The notes under the pieces are model-generated. The model ran no database searches. It was not told the origin of the DNA and was given only the letters and a program-made list of their open reading frames with translations. The position numbers and the translations under genes were made by a program. Positions 25,479-59,347 of a stretch of 64,000 bases of DNA are shown here, in pieces (within the stretch, counting starts at the first letter, position 1; each line of letters opens with the position of its first letter). The stretch is from an uncultured Bacillota bacterium (GTDB lineage Bacteria; Bacillota_I; Bacilli_A; RF39; UBA660): NCBI GenBank assembly GCA_946630315.1, contig CAMOYT010000001.1:895-64894 (forward strand), written 5' to 3'.

Positions 25479-25602
25479 AAGAGGTAATTATTTTACTTCT
25501 TTTTTTATGTAAAGTCATAAAATATGAATTGTCTTTTTTTGTAAGATGGTTTATACTTGAATATAGAATAGGTGAGCTATTTCATTGGAAGGAGATATTA
25601 AT

Positions 25603-26148
25603 ATGAAGGGTAAAAAGAAAAAGTATTTGAGTGTTATTATTTTATTGCTATTATTAGTTGGTATTACAGTTGGTTATGCTACTTTAAGTTCTAATTTATC
25701 TATTTCTGGTACATCTACTATTAATAGTGCTAGTTGGGATGTTCATTTTGAAAACTTATCAGTTACAGCAGGAAGTGTAGATGCTCTTGAAGACAATGAG
25801 CCTACTATTTCTGCAGATAGTTTAAATATTACATATGGAATTGAGTTAACTCAACCTGGTGATTTTTATGAATTTACTGTAGATGTAAAAAATGCTGGTA
25901 GTGTAGATGCTAGATTAAGTGAATTACCAACACTTGGTGGAGTATCAACTGAACAAGATAAGTATGTAAATTATACATTTACTCATACTGATGGATCTGC
26001 AATAGCTGTTGGTGAAACTTTAGCTGCTGGAGCTTCAAAGAGTTTTAAAGTAAGAGTAGAATTTGATGAGAATGTTTCTTCAACTGATTTACCAAAATCA
26101 AGACAAGATATGACTTTAACAGTTGATATGAATTATGAACAAAAATAA
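25603..26148 (+). CDS. TasA/camelysin (peptidase M73)-family secreted protein with a SipW-type signal peptide (locus A). The track ORF begins at 25585 and includes the RBS.
   Basis: N-terminal KKKK-hydrophobic segment then VGYA|TLSSNLSISG (AXA site). LTQPGDFYEFTVDVKNAGSVDARL matches the TasA LKPGD..F.F.N.GS core. Confidence 0.7.
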   Translation: MKGKKKKYLSVIILLLLLVGITVGYATLSSNLSISGTSTINSASWDVHFENLSVTAGSVDALEDNEPTISADSLNITYGIELTQPGDFYEFTVDVKNAGSVDARLSELPTLGGVSTEQDKYVNYTFTHTDGSAIAVGETLAAGASKSFKVRVEFDENVSSTDLPKSRQDMTLTVDMNYEQK

Positions 26149-26159
26149 TAATAAATTAT

Positions 26160-26195
26160 AAAGAAACTACTATGTAGTTTTCTTTATAATTTTAT
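26160..26195 (+). terminator. Terminator/attenuator after the TasA-like gene.
   Basis: GAAACTACtaTGTAGTTTC hairpin plus T-rich tail. Confidence 0.6.
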
Positions 26196-26250
26196 ATGTT
26201 TATTAGTAATAGTAGGCATATAAAGTTATGAAGAATAATGAGGGATTTAT

Positions 26251-27387
26251 ATGCATAGAAATATAAAAAACATTAGTTTACTACTTATTGTTTTTGTATA
26301 TATTATCTTATATAGATTCTTTATCTTTACTAATTATATGAAAATTTCTGAGATAGTAAGTGCAGCCTTTTTGCTTTTAGTACTTGGTATTGCGATTGGC
26401 TTTTTGGGTATTAGAAAAGATAAAAGGACTATATTGAGGGATAATATTTTTCGTATTGTTATTTTTTATCTTATATTGACCTTTGTAATTATGTTTGGGA
26501 TGGGATTCTTTACTGGATATTTAAAGAATGCTTATTCAAGGTCTAGTTTTACATTATTTGATAATATAGCTGCACCAATATTAATAATTGTTTTTACTGA
26601 ATTGTTTAGATATGTATTTATTGGGGCTAATAAAGATAAGAAAGTATTTATTTATATAATGACTATACTTTTAATTTGTTTAGAGACGGTTATTAGTATA
26701 GGAGTGTTAAAATCATATGATGCTGAAAGTATATTCCATGCTTTTGCTTCAATATTCTTACCTTGTGTGGTTAAGAATATTGTATTAACTTATTTATGTT
26801 ATCATGTTGGATATAAAGTACCTTTATTATATAGATTAGTTGTAGATACTTATATATTCTTTGTACCAATTGTTCCTAATTTGGGAGAATATATTAATTC
26901 AATGATATTTATAAGTTTACCAATACTTATTTATATGAGTTCTTTTGGATTAATTGATGATAGAACTAAGAAGTTGGAACCGGTATTTAATAATGATAAT
27001 TTTACTTTGTTAGATATTCCAATAGCAGCTGTATTAATTATAATGATTTGTTTAATATCAGGATTCTTTACTTATACTATGATGGGTGTTGGATCTGATT
27101 CTATGACTCCTAAGATTAATAAGGGAGATGCTGTTGTGATGAGAAAGATTACTGATAAAACGGTTATTAAGAAAGGTGAAATAGTTGCTTATCAAAAAGA
27201 TAAAAAGGTAATAGTACATAGAGTTTATAAAATAAATAAAAATGGAACTTTTGTTACAAAAGGAGATGCTAATAATACACCTGATAAAAGTGCTGTTAAG
27301 AGAAAGCAAATAAAGGGTGTAGTTAAGTTTAAGATTCCATTTATTGCATATCCTACTTTATGGTTTAATGATTTGATTAATGGATAG
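26251..27387 (+). CDS. Fusion protein (locus A): N-terminal ~260-aa polytopic membrane domain of unknown function plus a C-terminal archaeal/ER-type signal peptidase I (SipW-like).
   Basis: C-terminus GSDSMTPKINKGDAVV...VHRVYK...KGDANNTPD parallels B. subtilis SipW SGSMEP...VTHRIV...KGDNN. It is preceded by ~8 predicted TM helices. Confidence 0.75.
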   Translation: MHRNIKNISLLLIVFVYIILYRFFIFTNYMKISEIVSAAFLLLVLGIAIGFLGIRKDKRTILRDNIFRIVIFYLILTFVIMFGMGFFTGYLKNAYSRSSFTLFDNIAAPILIIVFTELFRYVFIGANKDKKVFIYIMTILLICLETVISIGVLKSYDAESIFHAFASIFLPCVVKNIVLTYLCYHVGYKVPLLYRLVVDTYIFFVPIVPNLGEYINSMIFISLPILIYMSSFGLIDDRTKKLEPVFNNDNFTLLDIPIAAVLIIMICLISGFFTYTMMGVGSDSMTPKINKGDAVVMRKITDKTVIKKGEIVAYQKDKKVIVHRVYKINKNGTFVTKGDANNTPDKSAVKRKQIKGVVKFKIPFIAYPTLWFNDLING

Positions 27388-27398
27388 GAGAAGGAAAT

Positions 27399-28208
27399 AT
27401 GAAAAAGAATGTTTTGGGGTTTATTTTATTAGCAATAGCTTTTATTGTATTAATTCTTGGACTAGTAATGCTTAAGACTAGATTTAATAATTATGCTATT
27501 ATTGCTTATGCTCTAGCAGCAGTAGTTGGCTTTGTAGGATTATATTATATTATTACTAATAGTAATCCTAAGACAGCATATGAGAGTGCAGTTAGAGGAG
27601 TGTTAAATACATATGATTCTGTATTAGTTCAAAGTAATAAAGTACCTAATTTAGATGGTAGAAACATTGTGTATATTGGTACTATAGATGATTTAATTGA
27701 TGCTCAATTAGAAATTAGAAAACCTATTTGTTATGTTAAACAAAGTGAGTCTTGTTCATTTATTTTATTAGATGATAAGGAAGCATTTGTTCATATAATG
27801 AAGCTAAGTCCTGAAGTATTATCTCCTTTAGAAATAGAGATTAAAGAAAATGACTTAAAGGTTAAGAATCAAGATGAGATGGATGCTGAAATGTTAAGAG
27901 AAATTGAGAAGACTACTATTGTTAAGTTGTCTAATCATAAGAGTTATAAAGTATCTCCTATAAGAAAGAAAAAGGAAGAAGAAAAAGTAGAAGATAAGGT
28001 AGAAGAAATAGTTGAAGAACCTGAAGAAGTAAATAAAGAAGTTAAAGAAGAGCCTTATTTTGAAGAACCTTTAATTAGAAAAGAAGAGAATAATGATACT
28101 GAAGAAGTATTAGATGATAAAAAAGAAGAGAATAATGATACTGAAGAAGTATTAGATGATAAGAAAGAAGAAAAAGAAAAAGAAGATGATATAGAAGTAT
28201 TATTCTAG
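27399..28208 (+). CDS. Membrane accessory protein (locus A): two N-terminal TM helices, a conserved ~70-aa domain shared with the 56766 protein, and an acidic C-terminal tail with a tandem repeat.
   Basis: YDSVLVQSN...IDDLIDAQLEIRKPICYVK aligns with the 56766 protein's YDRIIVDTK...FNELVDARDTLGKPIVYEK. A 45-bp tandem repeat encodes EENNDTEEVLDDKKE twice. Confidence 0.55.
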   Translation: MKKNVLGFILLAIAFIVLILGLVMLKTRFNNYAIIAYALAAVVGFVGLYYIITNSNPKTAYESAVRGVLNTYDSVLVQSNKVPNLDGRNIVYIGTIDDLIDAQLEIRKPICYVKQSESCSFILLDDKEAFVHIMKLSPEVLSPLEIEIKENDLKVKNQDEMDAEMLREIEKTTIVKLSNHKSYKVSPIRKKKEEEKVEDKVEEIVEEPEEVNKEVKEEPYFEEPLIRKEENNDTEEVLDDKKEENNDTEEVLDDKKEEKEKEDDIEVLF

Positions 28209-53896: not shown

Positions 53897-54346
53897 ATGT
53901 ATATTCTTGATAAAAAGTATGATAATAAAAATGTAATTATTGATAATACGGAAATATATAATTTACGTGGTTTTCCTATGGGTGATGGAAGAAGTTTCAT
54001 GATACAAGGTAATAGTGTTAGTAATATTAATATTATGAATAGTGAACTTAATCATCCATTAGTTATTAGAAAAGTTTATAATCAATATTCTAGATTAGTT
54101 GAACTAATTACTAATTTATTATTAGATGATAATGACGATGATGGAGCAAGTTATAGAGAGGCATTAAATCAAATAGAGAGATTTAGAATTATCGTTAAAA
54201 ATCAATATAGAGCTTTTTTAGAAAAAGAAGAACTTGCTTTTATGGGTAAACAGTTATCTATATTAAGGCAAGAAGCTGGGGTAAAGCTTATGGAAATACA
54301 AAATAGTTATGATAGATATATGGAGACATCTCGCAGAGGAAAGTGA
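53897..54346 (+). CDS. Hypothetical protein at the proximal edge of TasA/SipW locus B.
   Basis: 149 aa, RBS AGGAGGAA. A terminator hairpin overlaps its 3' end (gagacatctc...gagatgtct plus T6). Confidence 0.45.
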   Translation: MYILDKKYDNKNVIIDNTEIYNLRGFPMGDGRSFMIQGNSVSNINIMNSELNHPLVIRKVYNQYSRLVELITNLLLDDNDDDGASYREALNQIERFRIIVKNQYRAFLEKEELAFMGKQLSILRQEAGVKLMEIQNSYDRYMETSRRGK

Positions 54347-54423: not shown

Positions 54424-54999
54424 ATGGATAGGGCAGAGAGAAATCAAAGAGAAATGCGTATTATTACTGTAGTTGCTTTATGTGTTGCGGTTATTTGTTT
54501 AAGTGTTGCTTATGCTGCAATGAATCAAACTTTAAAAGTATCAGGAGAAGCTAATATGAGAGTTGCAGATTGGAGTATTCATTTTAATAATGTTAATGCT
54601 TCAACTACTGGAGTTGCTACTTATACTATGCCAAATGTTTCTAATACTCAATTAAGTGATTTTGGAGTAGTCCTTACTAAACCAGGTGATTCTGTTACAT
54701 TTACTTTTGATATTGTTAATGATGGTGGTATTAATGCAGTACTTGGTACTCTTACTAAAGGTAAACCTGAATGTAGTAGTTTGACTAGTGATAAAGATGC
54801 TAAAATAGTATGTGATAATCTTATCTATACTTTAGAATATGATAATGGAAGTGCAGTAGAAGTTGGAGATACATTAGATAGTAATACTCATATGAGTGCT
54901 AAATTAAAAATTGCTTATAAAGATGGAGCAAAAGAAGTGCCTGAGTCTACTGTTAATATTAATGGGCTTGATTTAGTTCTTATTTATAACCAAGATTAA
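54424..54999 (+). CDS. TasA/camelysin-family secreted protein with a SipW-type signal peptide (locus B, copy 1).
   Basis: Signal ends VAYA|AMNQTLKVSG. LTKPGDSVTFTFDIVNDGGINAVLG core. Confidence 0.7.
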   Translation: MDRAERNQREMRIITVVALCVAVICLSVAYAAMNQTLKVSGEANMRVADWSIHFNNVNASTTGVATYTMPNVSNTQLSDFGVVLTKPGDSVTFTFDIVNDGGINAVLGTLTKGKPECSSLTSDKDAKIVCDNLIYTLEYDNGSAVEVGDTLDSNTHMSAKLKIAYKDGAKEVPESTVNINGLDLVLIYNQD

Positions 55000-55030
55000 A
55001 GAAAAGAGTTCTTTTCTTTTTTTTTGCTTT
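55000..55030 (+). terminator. Terminator/attenuator between the two TasA-like genes.
   Basis: agaaaagagttcttttct hairpin plus T9. Confidence 0.6.
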
Positions 55031-55063
55031 ATGGTATGATTTATAAAGATAGGAGGAGTACTT

Positions 55064-55639
55064 ATGACAATGGATCGTAGTAGGCGTTTTAAGATTGTTT
55101 CAATCTTTATATTGATAATTGCGGTTATTGGTTTATCTATTGCTTATGCTGCAATGAGTGAAGTTTTAAGTATTTCTGGAACAGCTAAAATGAATAGTGC
55201 TAATTGGAAAATTAAGTTTGAAAATTTGAAAGCTGAAAAAACAGGTGATGCTACTTTTGTAGTACCTACTATTAGTGATACATCTCTTATGAATTATGAA
55301 GTTAATTTAACTAAGCCAGGTGATTCTGTTACATTTACTTTTGATGTTTATAATAATGGTAATATTGATGCAGTACTTGGTACTCTTACTAAAGGAAAAC
55401 CTGAATGTAGTGGAGTTGGTTCTAATGGGGTTAATGATGCTAATATAGTATGTAATAATATTACTTATAATTTAAAATATAGTGATAATAATGTAGTTAA
55501 AGAAGGAGATTCTTTAGAGAAGGGTACTTTTAAAACAATGGTTTTATCTCTGCAATATAATAGTGATTCAACTAGTTTACCTAATGATGATGTTATAGTT
55601 AGAGGGTTAGATATTAATTTAATATATGATCAAGATTAG
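55064..55639 (+). CDS. TasA/camelysin-family secreted protein (locus B, copy 2).
   Basis: Signal ends IAYA|AMSEVLSISG. LTKPGDSVTFTFDVYNNGNIDAVLG core. Paralogous to 54424 and 25603. Confidence 0.7.
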   Translation: MTMDRSRRFKIVSIFILIIAVIGLSIAYAAMSEVLSISGTAKMNSANWKIKFENLKAEKTGDATFVVPTISDTSLMNYEVNLTKPGDSVTFTFDVYNNGNIDAVLGTLTKGKPECSGVGSNGVNDANIVCNNITYNLKYSDNNVVKEGDSLEKGTFKTMVLSLQYNSDSTSLPNDDVIVRGLDINLIYDQD

Positions 55640-55651
55640 GAGTTGATTTTT

Positions 55652-56779
55652 ATGAGAGATGAATCTTCTCGTATTCTACTTATAGAAATTTTACTACTAA
55701 TTGTAAGTTTATGGGGATTATTTACTAGTCAATTTAATTTATTATTATATTTAATTCTATTAATAGTTCCTTTGGTTTTAACTATATATTTATTAGGAGT
55801 AGAAAAAAGAGGGGAAAGGCTAACCAAAGATAGTTTATTAATTCTATTGATTGGTAGTATTAGTTATTACTTAATTACTTATATTATTGGATATTTTAGT
55901 GGCTTCTTAAGAAGTGGATATAGTCATGATTTAGGAAGTATTATTTATAATATTAGTCTTTGGAGTATATTTGTAATAATAATAGAATTTATACGTGGTA
56001 TTATTATAAAAAAAGGTAAATATTATAATAAATTAATATATTTTTCTATATTTGTATTTACAATACTTGAAGTAGTTACTAATATGTCTATATATAATAT
56101 TATTAGTAAGATGGTATTATTTGATACTATATTTAGTGTTATAATACCTATTTTTACTAAGAATTTATTAATGACTTATATTTGTTATCATGCTGATTAT
56201 AAAAATAATATTATTTATAGATTAATTATGGAATTACCTATATATGTAGTTCCTATAATTCCTAATATGGGAGATTATTTAAGAAATCTTATTTTGATGT
56301 TGTTGCCACTAATACTTATTTATTGGCATAATACTAGTTTTTTTAATAGTAGAGAGATTAAAGATGGAAAAAATTTGCATAAGAAATATGTTATAGAGAA
56401 AATTTGTGATATAATGGTTATGATAGTGCTAGTAGTTGTTGTAGTACTTGAAAGTGGTATCTTTAGATTTGTTGCTTTAACAATAGGTAGTGAATCTATG
56501 ACTAGTACAATTAATAAAGGTGATGTAGTTATTATTGATAAGGGTAGTAATAACTATAAGGTAGGAGATATTATTGCTTTTAGAAAGGGTAGTCATATCT
56601 TAGTACATAGAATTGTTTATAAGTCAGAAAATGGATACAATACAAAAGGGGACTTTAATAAAGAAAAGGATAATTGGTTGGTTAAGGAAGACAATATAGT
56701 TGGAAAATATGTTTTTAAAGTTAATTACATAGGTTGGCCAACTGTTAAACTGAATGAATGGTTAAGTGGTGGTGTCTAG
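55652..56779 (+). CDS. Fusion protein (locus B): polytopic membrane domain plus C-terminal SipW-like archaeal/ER-type signal peptidase I. The track ORF begins at 55643.
   Basis: GSESMTSTINKGDVVIID...VHRIVYK...KGDFNKEKD. The N-terminal domain shares KNLLMTYICYHADYK / YRLIMELPIYVVPIIPNMGDY motifs with the 26251 protein. Confidence 0.75.
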   Translation: MRDESSRILLIEILLLIVSLWGLFTSQFNLLLYLILLIVPLVLTIYLLGVEKRGERLTKDSLLILLIGSISYYLITYIIGYFSGFLRSGYSHDLGSIIYNISLWSIFVIIIEFIRGIIIKKGKYYNKLIYFSIFVFTILEVVTNMSIYNIISKMVLFDTIFSVIIPIFTKNLLMTYICYHADYKNNIIYRLIMELPIYVVPIIPNMGDYLRNLILMLLPLILIYWHNTSFFNSREIKDGKNLHKKYVIEKICDIMVMIVLVVVVVLESGIFRFVALTIGSESMTSTINKGDVVIIDKGSNNYKVGDIIAFRKGSHILVHRIVYKSENGYNTKGDFNKEKDNWLVKEDNIVGKYVFKVNYIGWPTVKLNEWLSGGV

Positions 56780-57977
56780 TATGGAAAAATTTAAATTTGT
56801 CAAAGATGAAATTGAATTAGAAAAAGAAGATCAAGCTAGGGAAGAAAAGAAGCAAGAAGCTTTAAAAGCTATAGATGAAAAAGAAGAGACTGAAGTAACT
56901 GAAGTAGTAGAAGAACCAACTGAAGAAGTTGATATTGAAGGGTTTAGAGTTAAGAAACGTCCTTATTTTGGATTTAAGGCAAGAGTATTTTTCTTCTTTA
57001 TAGTTGCTTTACTATTCTTTGTAGGTGGTTGCTATTTCTTAGTTGAATCAGTTGATAAGAGCAAAAGTGATAAAGTTACTTATGATGAGGTAAGTTCTAC
57101 TGCATATCAAGTATGTATGAAGAATGCTAGTCATTATCAAGATACTTGTCAAAAAGAAGGAAGAGCTTATATTTCTGAAGTTGCTAATACAATTGAGTCT
57201 ACATTTAAATATAATGTTAATATTAGTGATGAAATAGAGTATAATGTTAAATACTATATAGAAGCTAAGACTAGTATTTTTGATAAAGATGATAGTACTA
57301 AATTATTATATTCTTCAGCAGAAAACTTAGTAGATAATACTCCTTTAAGTGGAGTTGGTAATAAGATTTCAATACTTGAAGATATTAAAATACCATATAA
57401 AAAGTATAATGACTTTGTATTAAGTTATAAGAGTAAATATGCTATTAATGCTGATGCTAAATTAGATGTTAATTTATATTTAGTAGAAGATGGTAAGAGT
57501 CGTAAGATATCTGGATTAAGTATGGATCTTGGTAGTAAGACATTTAGTATTAAGAAAGCTAATACTACTAATATTAAAAAAGTAGTAGATTTAGAAAATA
57601 ATAGTTGGGATGAATATAATACTGTTTGTTTTGTAGTAGGAGTTATATTATTACTATGTAGTTTATTTGTTATTATTAAACTTAGTAGTTTTGTAAACAA
57701 GGTTATTAATAATAAGAGTAAATATCAAAGAATATTACAAACTATACTTAGAGAATATGATAGAATTATTGTTGATACTAAGGATGGATATATTGTTCCT
57801 GAAGATAAAGTAATATTAGAACTTGATAGTTTTAATGAATTAGTAGATGCTAGAGATACTTTAGGAAAACCAATTGTTTATGAAAAAGTAAATGATGTTA
57901 AGAGTCAATTCTTTGTAGAAGATGATAATAAAGTTTATAAATTTACTTTAAAAGAAGCAGATGTAGATGAAAATTAG
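56766..57977 (+). CDS. Membrane accessory protein (locus B): acidic N-terminus, TM, ~200-aa extracytoplasmic region, second TM, and a C-terminal domain homologous to part of the 27399 protein.
   Basis: TMs at FFFFIVALLFFVGGCYFLV and VCFVVGVILLLCSLFVIIKL. C-terminal domain aligns with 27399 (see that entry). Confidence 0.55.
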   Translation: MVVSSMEKFKFVKDEIELEKEDQAREEKKQEALKAIDEKEETEVTEVVEEPTEEVDIEGFRVKKRPYFGFKARVFFFFIVALLFFVGGCYFLVESVDKSKSDKVTYDEVSSTAYQVCMKNASHYQDTCQKEGRAYISEVANTIESTFKYNVNISDEIEYNVKYYIEAKTSIFDKDDSTKLLYSSAENLVDNTPLSGVGNKISILEDIKIPYKKYNDFVLSYKSKYAINADAKLDVNLYLVEDGKSRKISGLSMDLGSKTFSIKKANTTNIKKVVDLENNSWDEYNTVCFVVGVILLLCSLFVIIKLSSFVNKVINNKSKYQRILQTILREYDRIIVDTKDGYIVPEDKVILELDSFNELVDARDTLGKPIVYEKVNDVKSQFFVEDDNKVYKFTLKEADVDEN

Positions 57978-58031: not shown

Positions 58032-58340
58032 ATGGTTGTAGAGAAAGCAGATCAATTTTTAAACTTACATAGTGAATATGAAAGTAAGTTAGTAGTAATT
58101 AATAGTTATTTTACTAATGCATTAATTAATTTAGAGAGTGATTCTAGTAAGGAAGCTATTTCTAATATGTTTAGAGATTTTTATCAAGTAATTGCTAAAT
58201 TTACTGATGAATTAAATGCTGAAGTAAGTATGGATAAGAAATTAGAGATTGCGCTTAGAAGAGATGCATTTTTAAATAATTTAATAAGTACTTATGGAAT
58301 AGAGTATAATACTAAAGAAAAAAGTGAATTTAAGAAATAA
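58032..58340 (+). CDS. Hypothetical small helical protein.
   Basis: 102 aa, RBS GGAGGGGAA, own promoter (tgttataat). Confidence 0.45.
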   Translation: MVVEKADQFLNLHSEYESKLVVINSYFTNALINLESDSSKEAISNMFRDFYQVIAKFTDELNAEVSMDKKLEIALRRDAFLNNLISTYGIEYNTKEKSEFKK

Positions 58341-58843: not shown

Positions 58844-59347
58844 ATGGAAGAGAATAAAAAGAAAAGTTTTATTAGAGAATGGGGACCATTTATATTAATA
58901 ATTATTATAATTTTAATTGTAAAGTTTTTTATAGTTACTCCTATTAAAGTAAATGGTGATAGTATGAATCCTACTTTAAAAGATGGAGATATTATGATAC
59001 TTAATAGAATTGATTATAAATTAAATGGTTTAAATAGATTTGATATCGTGGTACTTAAAAAAGATGGAGAATATTTAATTAAACGTGTTATTGGCTTACC
59101 TGGTGAAGAGATTAAATATAAAAATAATAAATTATATATTAATGGGAAATATATAAAAGAGAATTATACTAGAAAAGTAAGTGTTGATATTGATGAAGTA
59201 ATACCTGAAGGTAAATATTATGTTTTAGGTGACAATCGTCTTAACTCACTTGACAGTGAAGAATTTGGTCCGGTTAGTGGTAGTAAAATACTAGGTAAAA
59301 CTAAACTAACTTTATTTCCATTTAAACATTTCGGTAATAAGAAGTAA
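58844..59347 (+). CDS. lepB: Signal peptidase I (bacterial S26 type).
   Basis: NGDSMNPTLKDGD (catalytic Ser) and IKRVIGLPGE (Lys) boxes. 167 aa. Confidence 0.85.
   Translation: MEENKKKSFIREWGPFILIIIIILIVKFFIVTPIKVNGDSMNPTLKDGDIMILNRIDYKLNGLNRFDIVVLKKDGEYLIKRVIGLPGEEIKYKNNKLYINGKYIKENYTRKVSVDIDEVIPEGKYYVLGDNRLNSLDSEEFGPVSGSKILGKTKLTLFPFKHFGNKK

Follow-up and report, generated by a model that had tools for sequence, protein, structure and literature searches.

Two loci of probable AbpX-type donor-strand fibres, each with a polytopic signal peptidase and a DUF5305 partner, in an uncultured rumen Bacilli lineage

We believe that the two loci described here, A and B, probably belong, as bacterial representatives, to the AbpX branch of the TasA-superfamily extracellular donor-strand fibres, and that each has a processing complex of its own. 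Both lie in the window, i.e., the whole stretch of 64,000 nucleotides analysed. The initial annotation had the anatomy right, and its interpretation is partly supported. All three open reading frames of locus A are where it placed them on the + strand, and the duplication it reported is borne out by a second set of cassette genes, locus B, at 54424-57977. The features are as follows.

25603..26148, + strand: AbpX-like (TasA-superfamily) fibre subunit A, 181 aa
26153..26192, + strand: AT-rich stem-loop directly 3' of the subunit A stop codon, followed by UUUUAUAU
26251..26955, + strand: eight-helix membrane domain, residues 1-235 of the 378-aa peptidase, predicted fold CPBP/Rce1/SpdC/APH-1-like
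27001..27084, + strand: signal-anchor helix of the peptidase domain, the ninth membrane segment (about residues 251-278), predicted orientation inside to outside
27085..27387, + strand: extracytoplasmic ER/archaeal-type signal peptidase I catalytic domain (about residues 279-378)
27399..28208, + strand: short-form DUF5305 accessory of locus A, 269 aa (PF17231, 4.8e-10, 39.7 bits against a cut-off of 29)
54424..54999, + strand: locus B subunit B1, AbpX-like, 191 aa (A2 HMM match 7e-55, which is not independent, B1 being itself a member of profile A2)
55064..55639, + strand: locus B subunit B2, AbpX-like, 191 aa, 34% identical to subunit A
55652..56779, + strand: polytopic signal peptidase I of locus B, 375 aa when read from ATG 55652 (TTG 55643 in the list of reading frames)
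56766..57977, + strand: full-length DUF5305 accessory of locus B, 403 aa (PF17231, 2.3e-11, 44 bits, positions 2-217 of 217)

The reading frames of both loci are real genes, considering that identical or near-identical proteins occur in public metagenomes (P0001 at 100%, P0271 at 99%); the 375-aa database protein P0204 is 100% identical to the locus B peptidase over the aligned positions. Identity between the loci amounts to 31% for the peptidases (BLASTP E 4e-42), which share the same architecture, 34% for the subunits and 24% over 118 aa for the DUF5305 proteins; judged from these sequences, the paralogues stem from an old duplication. The cassette is kept in 17 of the 17 related GTDB loci, with a DUF5305-like gene directly 3' of the peptidase each time, and the distant loci L030 and L032 also keep it in other genomic contexts. 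A metagenome scan with the locus B peptidase gave matches from the same organism only, and conservation of the B type is seen via L030, where a homologue of the locus B DUF5305 protein follows a B-type peptidase (phmmer 2.6e-95). A separate housekeeping peptidase of the LepB type is encoded at 58844-59347; together with the conservation of the cassette, this supports a dedicated role of the fused peptidase. No tip or anchor protein is encoded within the window, whereas related loci have such proteins.

Two observations concern the surroundings of the genes. One cassette copy is flanked by glyQS and a C26 glutamine-amidotransferase gene, the other by trmD and rplS; the former position, the only one of the two compared, is conserved in relatives. 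The stem-loop between the subunit and peptidase genes of locus A (RNA fold -15.4 kcal/mol, z -3.7, none of 200 shuffles as good) is a candidate partial terminator or attenuator, and its G-C pairs are too few for a consensus terminator scan to have called it.

The substrate candidate had been described as a protein with an AXA cleavage site and a TasA-type LKPGD core. The site (G-Y-A) and the membership in the TasA superfamily stand; the motif reads LTQPGD, and the gene most likely starts at ATG 25603 and not at TTG 25585, since an AAGGAGA ribosome-binding site lies 8 nt upstream of that ATG and the database protein has 181 aa. The signal peptide of subunit A is MKGKKKKYLSVIILLLLLVGITVGYA, with cleavage predicted after G-Y-A, and the mature form (155 aa, pI 4.2 (4.17), Asp+Glu 15.5%) has as its N-terminal strand TLSSNLSISGTSTI, the predicted donor strand. 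Subunit B1 contains two Cys, is predicted to be cleaved after A-Y-A and has a mature pI of 4.5 (4.50) with 12.5% Asp+Glu, while mature B2 (pI 4.45, Asp+Glu 13.0%) begins with AMSEVLSISGT and thus has Glu at position 4. The signal peptides are of the ordinary Sec type. The n-region of subunit A is Lys-rich and lacks an Arg-Arg pair, and the SRRF of B2 does not fit the Tat consensus.

The affiliation with AbpX is seen in profile comparison. The subunit profile A2 matches AbpX (9sj2) with E 6e-4 over the whole mature chain, residues 3-160; this cryo-EM fibril protein is the only significant solved relative by sequence, and the alignment covers its donor strand. The hhalign comparison of the subunit profile with AbpX gives a probability of 94% and E 1.3e-7, and the A2 HMM retrieves AbpX of Pyrodictium abyssi at 2e-11 among the reading frames of the compared loci. 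Pairwise BLASTP is weak (0.064), and a single-sequence search of the PDB with the subunit gave no match; a search with AbpX itself returned 7 proteins only, so there is no direct bridge from it to the window subunits. A Y-A cleavage site is common to both, as is acidity: AbpX has pI 4.05 and 14.7% Asp+Glu, the window subunits 4.2-4.5 and 12.5-15.5%.

Considering the Pfam results, one might take the small proteins not for fibre subunits but for CARDB/DUF11-like beta-sandwich proteins that are simply secreted or displayed at the surface, and the peptidase for a signal peptidase specialised on a small regulon. The window subunit does not reach the threshold of the TasA/camelysin model PF12389 (Peptidase_M73); the small proteins give only weak matches of the DUF4352, DUF11 and CARDB type; their similarity to solved pilins is modest; and UniRef labels AbpX itself 'CARDB domain-containing protein'. 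The first four mature residues are T-L-S-S in subunit A, A-M-N-Q in B1 and A-M-S-E in B2 (family consensus x-L-S-x), so that the donor-strand signature of AbpX (Trp2/Glu4, an aromatic residue at 2 and an acidic one at 4) is lacking in subunit A, which has Leu2 and Ser4, and is matched only in part by B2, which has Met2 and Glu4; Ca2+-triggered assembly may therefore not apply. We nevertheless find this explanation quite unlikely. The sole significant solved relative is a fibril protein aligned through its donor strand, the motif of the N-terminal strand (L34, L38, I40, G42, W51) is better conserved than most of the subunit, related loci encode larger multi-domain proteins that begin with this N-terminal module, in the manner of minor or tip pilins, and the top structural neighbours of the predictions (made for monomers) are repeatedly donor-strand filaments. 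A donor-strand fibre of the AbpX type thus remains our preferred reading. A sortase-anchored pilus was rejected, as neither the subunits nor the related larger subunit-like proteins contain LPXTG or a C-terminal sorting signal.

The assignment of the C-terminus of the 378-aa protein to a SipW-type catalytic domain was accurate in kind. The locus A and locus B peptidases score 82.9 and 73.4 bits (1.8e-20 for the latter) with TIGR02228 against a cut-off of 51.85, and by sequence this domain is an ER/archaeal (Sec11/SipW-type, MEROPS S26B) signal peptidase I that retains its catalytic residues. These are Ser and His (not Ser-Lys) and two conserved Asp six residues apart: Ser284 (codon 27100-27102), His323 (27217-27219), Asp339 (27265-27267) and Asp345 (27283-27285). 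The loss of Ser or His, against which the initial annotation had cautioned, is not the case; 50 homologues have all four residues without exception, and among 118 diverse family members their conservation is 95-97%. Of the solved proteins, SEC11A is nearest in sequence (E 3e-6); the domain aligns with its active-site motifs SGSMEP, VHRV and KGDNN, and the Asp pair has the spacing of D103 and D109 of yeast Sec11. The locus B enzyme retains E117, R120, S284, H323, D339 and D345. A SipW equivalog was rejected: NF046067 gives 63.6 (A) and 51.3 (B) bits, far under its cut-off of 190.

About eight transmembrane helices had been counted in the first ~260 residues. Eight are indeed found, within residues 3-235, and a ninth segment is to be added, the anchor at ~251-278, with a hydropathy peak of 2.71 at residues 251-269 and AF2 helices at 255-269 and 274-278. 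Ahead of the anchor, loop 236-254 contains 3 Lys/Arg and 4 Asp/Glu; this charged loop is predicted to be inside from helix parity and from the Lys/Arg-rich inner loops 53-60 and 127-130; with nine hydrophobic segments and these three loops inside, the catalytic domain is placed outside.

The membrane domain (residues 1-235) has no family in Pfam or NCBIfam, even at E <=10 in 50 members, and a single-sequence search of the PDB with it gave no match. Used alone as a query, it nevertheless retrieves 578 clusters at 50% identity, and the best 150 of them are mostly 375-385 aa long, the shorter ones resembling fragments. At least 92% of the wider family share G85, G89, E117, R120, Y194, P206, P209 and P224; E117 and R120 form an ExxR on helix 4 in the inner leaflet, and the conserved loops GFLKNAYS and VPIxPNLGxY are on the outer face, the side of the catalytic domain. 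In hhalign comparisons with the full-length peptidase, the AbpX-linked enzymes of P. abyssi and of an archaeal MAG reach 99.1% and 99.6%, respectively, and in each case the alignment extends through the membrane domain. Taken alone, the membrane domain matches the archaeal MAG enzyme with E 4e-6 and a score of 45 (maximum of 20 shuffles, 22), and its score with the P. abyssi enzyme, 20.6, is not above the controls (shuffle maxima 17.3 for that sequence and 21.9 for the other). It is thus the full-length alignment, together with the conserved residues in common and the archaeal MAG enzyme as an intermediate, that supports homology to the P. abyssi membrane domain.

A comparison with CPBP proteins, proposed earlier as a check, is favoured by structure and not by sequence. 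The fold of residues 1-235 is predicted to be CPBP/Rce1/SpdC-like, with the eight helices of the CPBP fold; this assignment comes from one AF2 model with an overall pLDDT of 76, and there is no sequence signal. The best structural match is SpdC, a CPBP-fold protein acting with the glucosaminidase SagB in a peptidoglycan-release complex (according to the entry title). None of the 50 members matches the Pfam CPBP model PF02517, and a motif scan found no canonical CPBP protein in the reading frames of the window and loci L001-L026.

It is tempting to regard such a domain as a second, active intramembrane protease, which would degrade the released signal peptide or trim a substrate elsewhere; we consider this decidedly unlikely. 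The catalytic motifs of CPBP proteases are EExxxR, FxxxH and HxxxN/D. The spacing of the Glu-Arg pair here is ExxR rather than ExxxR, the domain has no conserved His, and no His, Asn or Asp in it reaches 85% conservation across the family, so that motifs 2 and 3 are missing; Pfam CPBP matches none of the 50 members, as noted; and SpdC is a non-catalytic scaffold. A non-catalytic domain is what we prefer.

The initial annotation had suggested instead an export or polymerisation platform by sortase/exosortase logic, which would amount to a new kind of secretion or assembly system. The strict fusion of the domain to the peptidase (the best 150 of the 578 clusters) and the outer-face loops on the side of the catalytic domain would suit this proposal, and CPBP-fold enzymes include sorting proteases, e.g., myxosortase (PMC11980579). 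We hold it to be very improbable: with their classical Sec signal peptides, the subunits require no further exporter; the domain has no ATPase or channel-like feature, and nothing points to transport by it; C-terminal sorting signals are missing, as stated above; and AbpX polymerises in vitro without a chaperone, according to bioRxiv 10.64898/2026.01.04.697558. In our preferred reading the membrane domain most likely acts as a scaffold.

The third membrane protein, noted earlier for its acidic repeat tail, does carry there an exact 14-aa tandem repeat (EENNDTEEVLDDKK x2) and, further, belongs to the known Pfam family DUF5305. In locus A only profile positions 118-214 of 217 of PF17231 are matched; the two helices of the protein (5-23, 34-52) form a hairpin that leaves hardly any ectodomain, and the cytoplasmic DUF5305 C-terminal domain (~55-135) and the tail come after them. 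The locus B protein has an acidic cytoplasmic N-terminus, TM1 (74-92), an ectodomain of ~190 aa, TM2 (286-304) and a cytoplasmic C-terminal domain.

The three-part arrangement, which had been presumed undescribed, is known, and so is a pairing of a dedicated peptidase with DUF5305. The abpX loci of archaea and bacteria combine an AbpX-like subunit, a ten-TM SPase I and a DUF5305 accessory; the AbpX cleavage site is a prediction there too, and the preprint itself likens DUF5305 fusions to the eukaryotic SPC (bioRxiv 10.64898/2026.01.04.697558). Of the features of an AbpX-type locus, subunit homology, a low pI (~4) with ~15% acidic residues, an adjacent multi-TM SPase I and DUF5305 are found in the window. 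The likeness extends to an acidic subunit of ~160 aa when mature, with a Y-A site and an N-terminal donor strand, to an adjoining dedicated TIGR02228-type multi-TM signal peptidase of ~380 aa homologous through the membrane domain, and to minor and large subunit-like proteins in related loci. The differences are nine predicted helices instead of ten with no C-terminal TM, a subunit A without the Trp2/Glu4 Ca2+-site signature, a locus A DUF5305 without ectodomain, no SLH, LPXTG, sortase or regulator genes near the loci, and the host, an uncultured low-GC rumen Bacilli lineage not among the organisms in Table S3 of the preprint.

In the tafi pili (Tat-fimbriae) of haloarchaea, too, the pilins TafA and TafE are TasA-like and of the donor-strand kind, TafD is a dedicated signal peptidase of the S26 type, and TafG, a DUF5305 protein, is its proposed helper (PMC11821415, PMC12337348). 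The pairing of DUF5305 with the dedicated SPase was shown there genetically, and deletion of tafD abolishes TafA processing and tafi filaments (PMC11821415). However, TafD has an N-terminal peptidase, four TM helices and a second external domain (PMC11821415), whereas the peptidase domain here is C-terminal behind nine TM helices. A Tat-dependent tafi system was rejected in view of this architecture and the lack of fit to the Tat consensus.

The tapA-sipW-tasA operon of B. subtilis also unites a TasA-superfamily subunit with a dedicated ER/archaeal-type signal peptidase, and assembly is by donor-strand exchange, as we presume for the window proteins. SipW, in contrast, is small and stand-alone (~190 aa against 378 aa with the extra eight-helix domain), TapA is missing at the window loci, and the B. 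subtilis operon has no DUF5305 partner. The CPBP/Abi superfamily (Rce1, SpdC (LyrA), APH-1, TMEM147) differs in that there is no sequence match, His motifs 2 and 3 are absent here and the domain is fused to a signal peptidase. As in the eukaryotic signal peptidase complex (SEC11A/C with SPCS1-3; PDB 7p2p, 7p2q), a catalytic subunit would work with membrane accessories, but the accessory parts are unrelated in sequence, and one module, of CPBP-like fold, is covalently fused here.

The following mechanism can be proposed. As its sequence shows, the small acidic subunit is made with a Sec-type signal peptide (Lys/Arg-rich n-region, hydrophobic core, G/A-Y-A end); it is presumably carried across the membrane by Sec. 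The neighbouring enzyme would then cleave after Y-A with its Sec11/SipW-type Ser-His-Asp site at the outer membrane face; the residues are in place, the topology is predicted, and the activity is suggested by homology and by the genetics of archaeal TafD. The eight-helix CPBP-like domain, which has lost the CPBP His motifs and kept Glu-x-x-Arg, is most likely a non-catalytic intramembrane scaffold like SpdC and APH-1. To judge from its fold and conservation, it would hold the signal peptide of the subunit and/or the DUF5305 partner and so make the enzyme specific for its cognate subunits. DUF5305 is probably the accessory subunit of the peptidase complex, as strict adjacency and the published SPase-DUF5305 fusions suggest. 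By analogy with the AbpX, TasA and AbpA structures, cleavage would release the amphipathic N-terminal strand (xLSxxLxIxGT) for insertion into the open beta-sandwich of the next subunit, and the resulting fibrils are probably matrix or adhesion fibres in the rumen.

A bolder version is conceivable, though we regard it as unlikely: the Sec11-like domain, the CPBP-like domain with its Glu-Arg pair and DUF5305 might form a holo-complex that does more than cleave, capturing the signal peptide in a cavity, coupling cleavage to donor-strand hand-over at the fibre base or degrading the signal peptide. If true, it would be a membrane-embedded assembly machine for chaperone-free donor-strand fibres, and the CPBP/APH-1 fold would be newly used as a partner of a serine protease, in parallel to APH-1 in gamma-secretase.

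What we report as new is the CPBP/Rce1/SpdC/APH-1-like predicted fold of the extra membrane domain and its near-invariant Glu-x-x-Arg; the literature searched gave no description of a fusion between a CPBP-like domain and a signal peptidase. TasA-superfamily donor-strand fibres are an emerging cross-domain route to biofilm matrices, and the wider question is that of processing and assembly without ushers or sortases in Gram-positive bacteria and archaea. An abundant uncultured rumen Bacilli lineage holds two diverged kits of the AbpX type, and the peptidases form a large family (the membrane domain alone retrieves 578 clusters at 50% identity). The predicted CPBP-like fold and Glu-x-x-Arg may offer a hypothesis, accessible to mutation, for fibres that need a signal peptidase of their own.

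The observation of the initial annotation, a small secreted protein followed by a polytopic signal peptidase and a third membrane protein, is confirmed, and its anatomical reading is largely right. The features relevant here are as follows.

25585-28208, + strand: locus A, three co-directional ORFs (a small secreted protein, subunit A; a 378-aa protein, the peptidase; a 269-aa protein)
54424-57977: locus B, the paralogous set, with two small proteins instead of one (subunits B1 and B2)
58844-59347: LepB, a housekeeping signal peptidase I of bacterial type (PF10502 at 9.5e-44), encoded shortly 3' of locus B and behind rplS

Identity between the two loci is 31% for the peptidases, 34% for the subunits and 24% over 118 aa for the third proteins; thus, the paralogues are old. 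Within 35 kb this genome encodes one P-type (LepB) and two polytopic ER-type signal peptidases; considering that LepB is encoded separately, the two polytopic enzymes are extra, specialised peptidases. The window has 27% G+C and a nearly uniform GC skew over 1-64000 (about +0.2 to +0.5 per 2-kb step, except at 14-16 kb, where it falls to about 0); 59 of its 62 ORFs of at least 120 aa lie on the + strand. Proteins identical to those of the window are contained in sheep-rumen metagenome assemblies, and relatives come from MAGs of the ruminant gut that carry the label “Bacilli bacterium” or “uncultured Erysipelotrichaceae”. Among the neighbours, the product of 29745-34310 (1521 aa; 0.8 kb downstream of locus A) combines FHA with FtsK/SpoIIIE ATPase domains in an architecture like that of EssC of type VII secretion; small ORFs follow at 34610-35427. 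Locus B is flanked by small ORFs at 53897-54346 (149 aa) and 58032-58340 (102 aa), for which the Pfam search gave no match.

Residues 257-370 of the peptidase match TIGR02228 (ER/archaeal signal peptidase I) with a score of 82.9 against the curated cut-off of 51.85. The Bacillus SipW equivalog was rejected for the locus A enzyme (63.6, far under the cut-off of 190). By sequence, human SEC11A and SEC11C are the nearest relatives of known structure; the aligned part takes in the serine of SxSMxP, the histidine of VHRV and the aspartate of KGDxN. Loss of the catalytic Ser/His, named initially as grounds for refutation, is not observed: Ser284, His323, Asp339 and Asp345 are invariant among 50 homologues and 95-97% conserved in 118 family members with 21-49% identity to the window peptidase. 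Hydropathy and the positive-inside pattern fit a predicted N-in topology with an external catalytic domain; the Sec11-type active site is intact and predicted to face outward.

For residues 1-235 there is no sequence match in Pfam, NCBIfam or PDB. A search of residues 1-255 against 1.8 billion cluster representatives (E <= 1e-3) matched 578 clusters; among the best 150, most are 375-385 aa long and match at their own N-termini, so the fusion is the fixed architecture of a sizeable family. In the AlphaFold2 model (pLDDT 76 overall, mostly >80 in the membrane domain), eight helices lead via a charged linker into a ninth helix, the anchor, behind which lies the beta-rich catalytic domain. G85, G89, E117 (100%), R120 (99%), Y194, P206, P209 and P224 are conserved across the family and two archaeal homologues. 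The near-invariant Glu-x-x-Arg (E117/R120), predicted on the inner-leaflet side of helix 4, recalls CPBP motif 1. The family alignment has no conserved His in this domain, which means that CPBP motifs 2 and 3 are absent; an active second protease is therefore improbable. Given the retained Glu-x-x-Arg and the two missing motifs, we read the domain, whose CPBP fold is predicted from the AlphaFold2 model, as a scaffold like SpdC or APH-1. That it is a true export or polymerisation platform seems to us very improbable.

ATG 25603 is the most likely start of subunit A, with an AAGGAGA site upstream of it; the database counterpart is 181 aa long. Directly 3' of the subunit A stop codon, a strong AT-rich stem-loop with a trailing U-run (26153-26192; MFE -15.4 kcal/mol, z -3.7), not picked up by the consensus terminator scan, may be an attenuator setting a high subunit-to-peptidase expression ratio. 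Pfam gave only sub-threshold DUF4352 and DUF11 matches; the TasA/camelysin model matched weakly in 4 of 43 subunit homologues and in none of the rest. A profile built from these 43 has a single significant solved relative, AbpX of Pyrodictium abyssi (9sj2, E 6e-4; hhalign probability 94%), the alignment running from the donor strand as far as the C-terminus. Mature window subunits are acidic like AbpX (pI 4.2-4.5, Asp+Glu 12.5-15.5%), and their Sec-type signal peptides, in which a terminal Y-A is conserved, close with G/A-Y-A where AbpX has T-Y-A. The stretch that follows, xLSxxLxIxGT...W(D/N)(V/I)HFxN, is among the best-conserved subunit regions; an amphipathic N-terminal strand is predicted on an acidic beta-sandwich. 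That these are non-polymerising surface proteins is, in our opinion, unlikely. The B2 signal peptide (55064-55150) has the n-region MTMDRSRRFKIV, whose twin-arginine loosely resembles a Tat motif; no such pair occurs in the signal peptides of B1 and subunit A. It is possibly of interest, as switching between Tat and Sec has been reported for Tafi pilins.

The third protein of both loci is DUF5305 (PF17231 above cut-off). The locus B protein is full-length, with a predicted order of TM, ectodomain of about 190 aa, TM and cytoplasmic domain. In locus A the match is confined to the C-terminal half of the model, and the predicted topology is a TM hairpin with hardly any loop outside, followed by a cytoplasmic domain and an acidic tail with a repeat. 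This highly acidic cytoplasmic tail (residues 191-269, 27969-28208) contains an exact 14-aa tandem repeat, EENNDTEEVLDDKK x2; its length varies widely among homologues. In related genomes, every DUF5305-like gene beside an A-type peptidase encodes a short protein (191-300 aa).

A search of other genomes found the same arrangement throughout: in 17/17 loci recovered from GTDB species representatives a strictly linked DUF5305-like gene lies directly 3' of the peptidase gene, and at least one subunit-like gene flanks the latter. In relatives, the cassette occupies a conserved site, bordered by glyQS on one side and a C26 amidotransferase gene on the other; two distant family members carry it in other contexts. 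Many related loci encode additional proteins of 260-1132 aa in which this signal peptide, its G-Y-A site and the AbpX-like module are followed by a large C-terminal extension. None of them has LPXTG, and the window has no such protein; a role as tip or adhesin subunits is probable. The loci, fetched from other genomes, are listed below.

L007, L008, L012, L018-L023, L032: long subunit-headed proteins, e.g., L023:5715-9113, L012:5910-8138, L032:7178-9577
L032 (distant): subunit, peptidase, full-length DUF5305, 799-aa subunit-headed protein
L030 (distant): B-type peptidase relative, then B-type DUF5305

L023 is contig CAVDCT010000003.1, labelled Roseburia sp. AF12-17LB, with 26% G+C and infB-rbfA neighbours typical of low-GC Bacilli relatives; the label may reflect mis-binning of the contig and not a Lachnospiraceae host of this system.

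The claim of an undescribed system has been overtaken by the literature of 2023-2026. In haloarchaeal Tat-fimbriae, TasA-like pilins are accompanied by a dedicated peptidase, TafD, and a DUF5305 protein, TafG (PMC11821415; see also PMC12337348); upon tafD deletion TafA stays unprocessed and filaments are lost (PMC11821415). A preprint of January 2026 (bioRxiv 10.64898/2026.01.04.697558) describes AbpX homologues in archaea, Bacillota and Chloroflexota, a linked dedicated SPase I “structurally distinct, possessing ten transmembrane helices”, and a DUF5305 “SPase I accessory” usually encoded with minor and tip subunits. The 380-aa P. abyssi peptidase adjoining abpX aligns to the window family from helix 3 through the catalytic domain (hhalign 99.1%), and the 411-aa peptidase of an archaeal MAG locus, encoded with an AbpX-like gene and DUF5305, at 99.6%. 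The membrane domain alone matches the latter with E 4e-6, well over shuffled controls; against the P. abyssi enzyme it is not above them. On these alignments and the preprint description, the window loci are of the AbpX kind. They differ in having nine peptidase helices instead of ten, a locus A DUF5305 without ectodomain, no Trp2/Glu4 signature (the AbpX Ca2+ site of the preprint, absent from subunit A), no anchor, sortase or regulator genes found nearby, and a host lineage missing from the organisms listed in the preprint. Our literature search found no paper linking CPBP with these peptidases, nor is a CPBP/Rce1-like fold mentioned in the preprint.

We presume that the subunits would be exported via Sec and cleaved by the cognate polytopic enzyme, the CPBP-like domain and DUF5305 each having a scaffold or specificity role; the mature subunits would then polymerise by donor strand into matrix or adhesion fibres. 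Loci A and B are thus a fresh example of an already described but experimentally unexplored kind, to which one structural insight is added.
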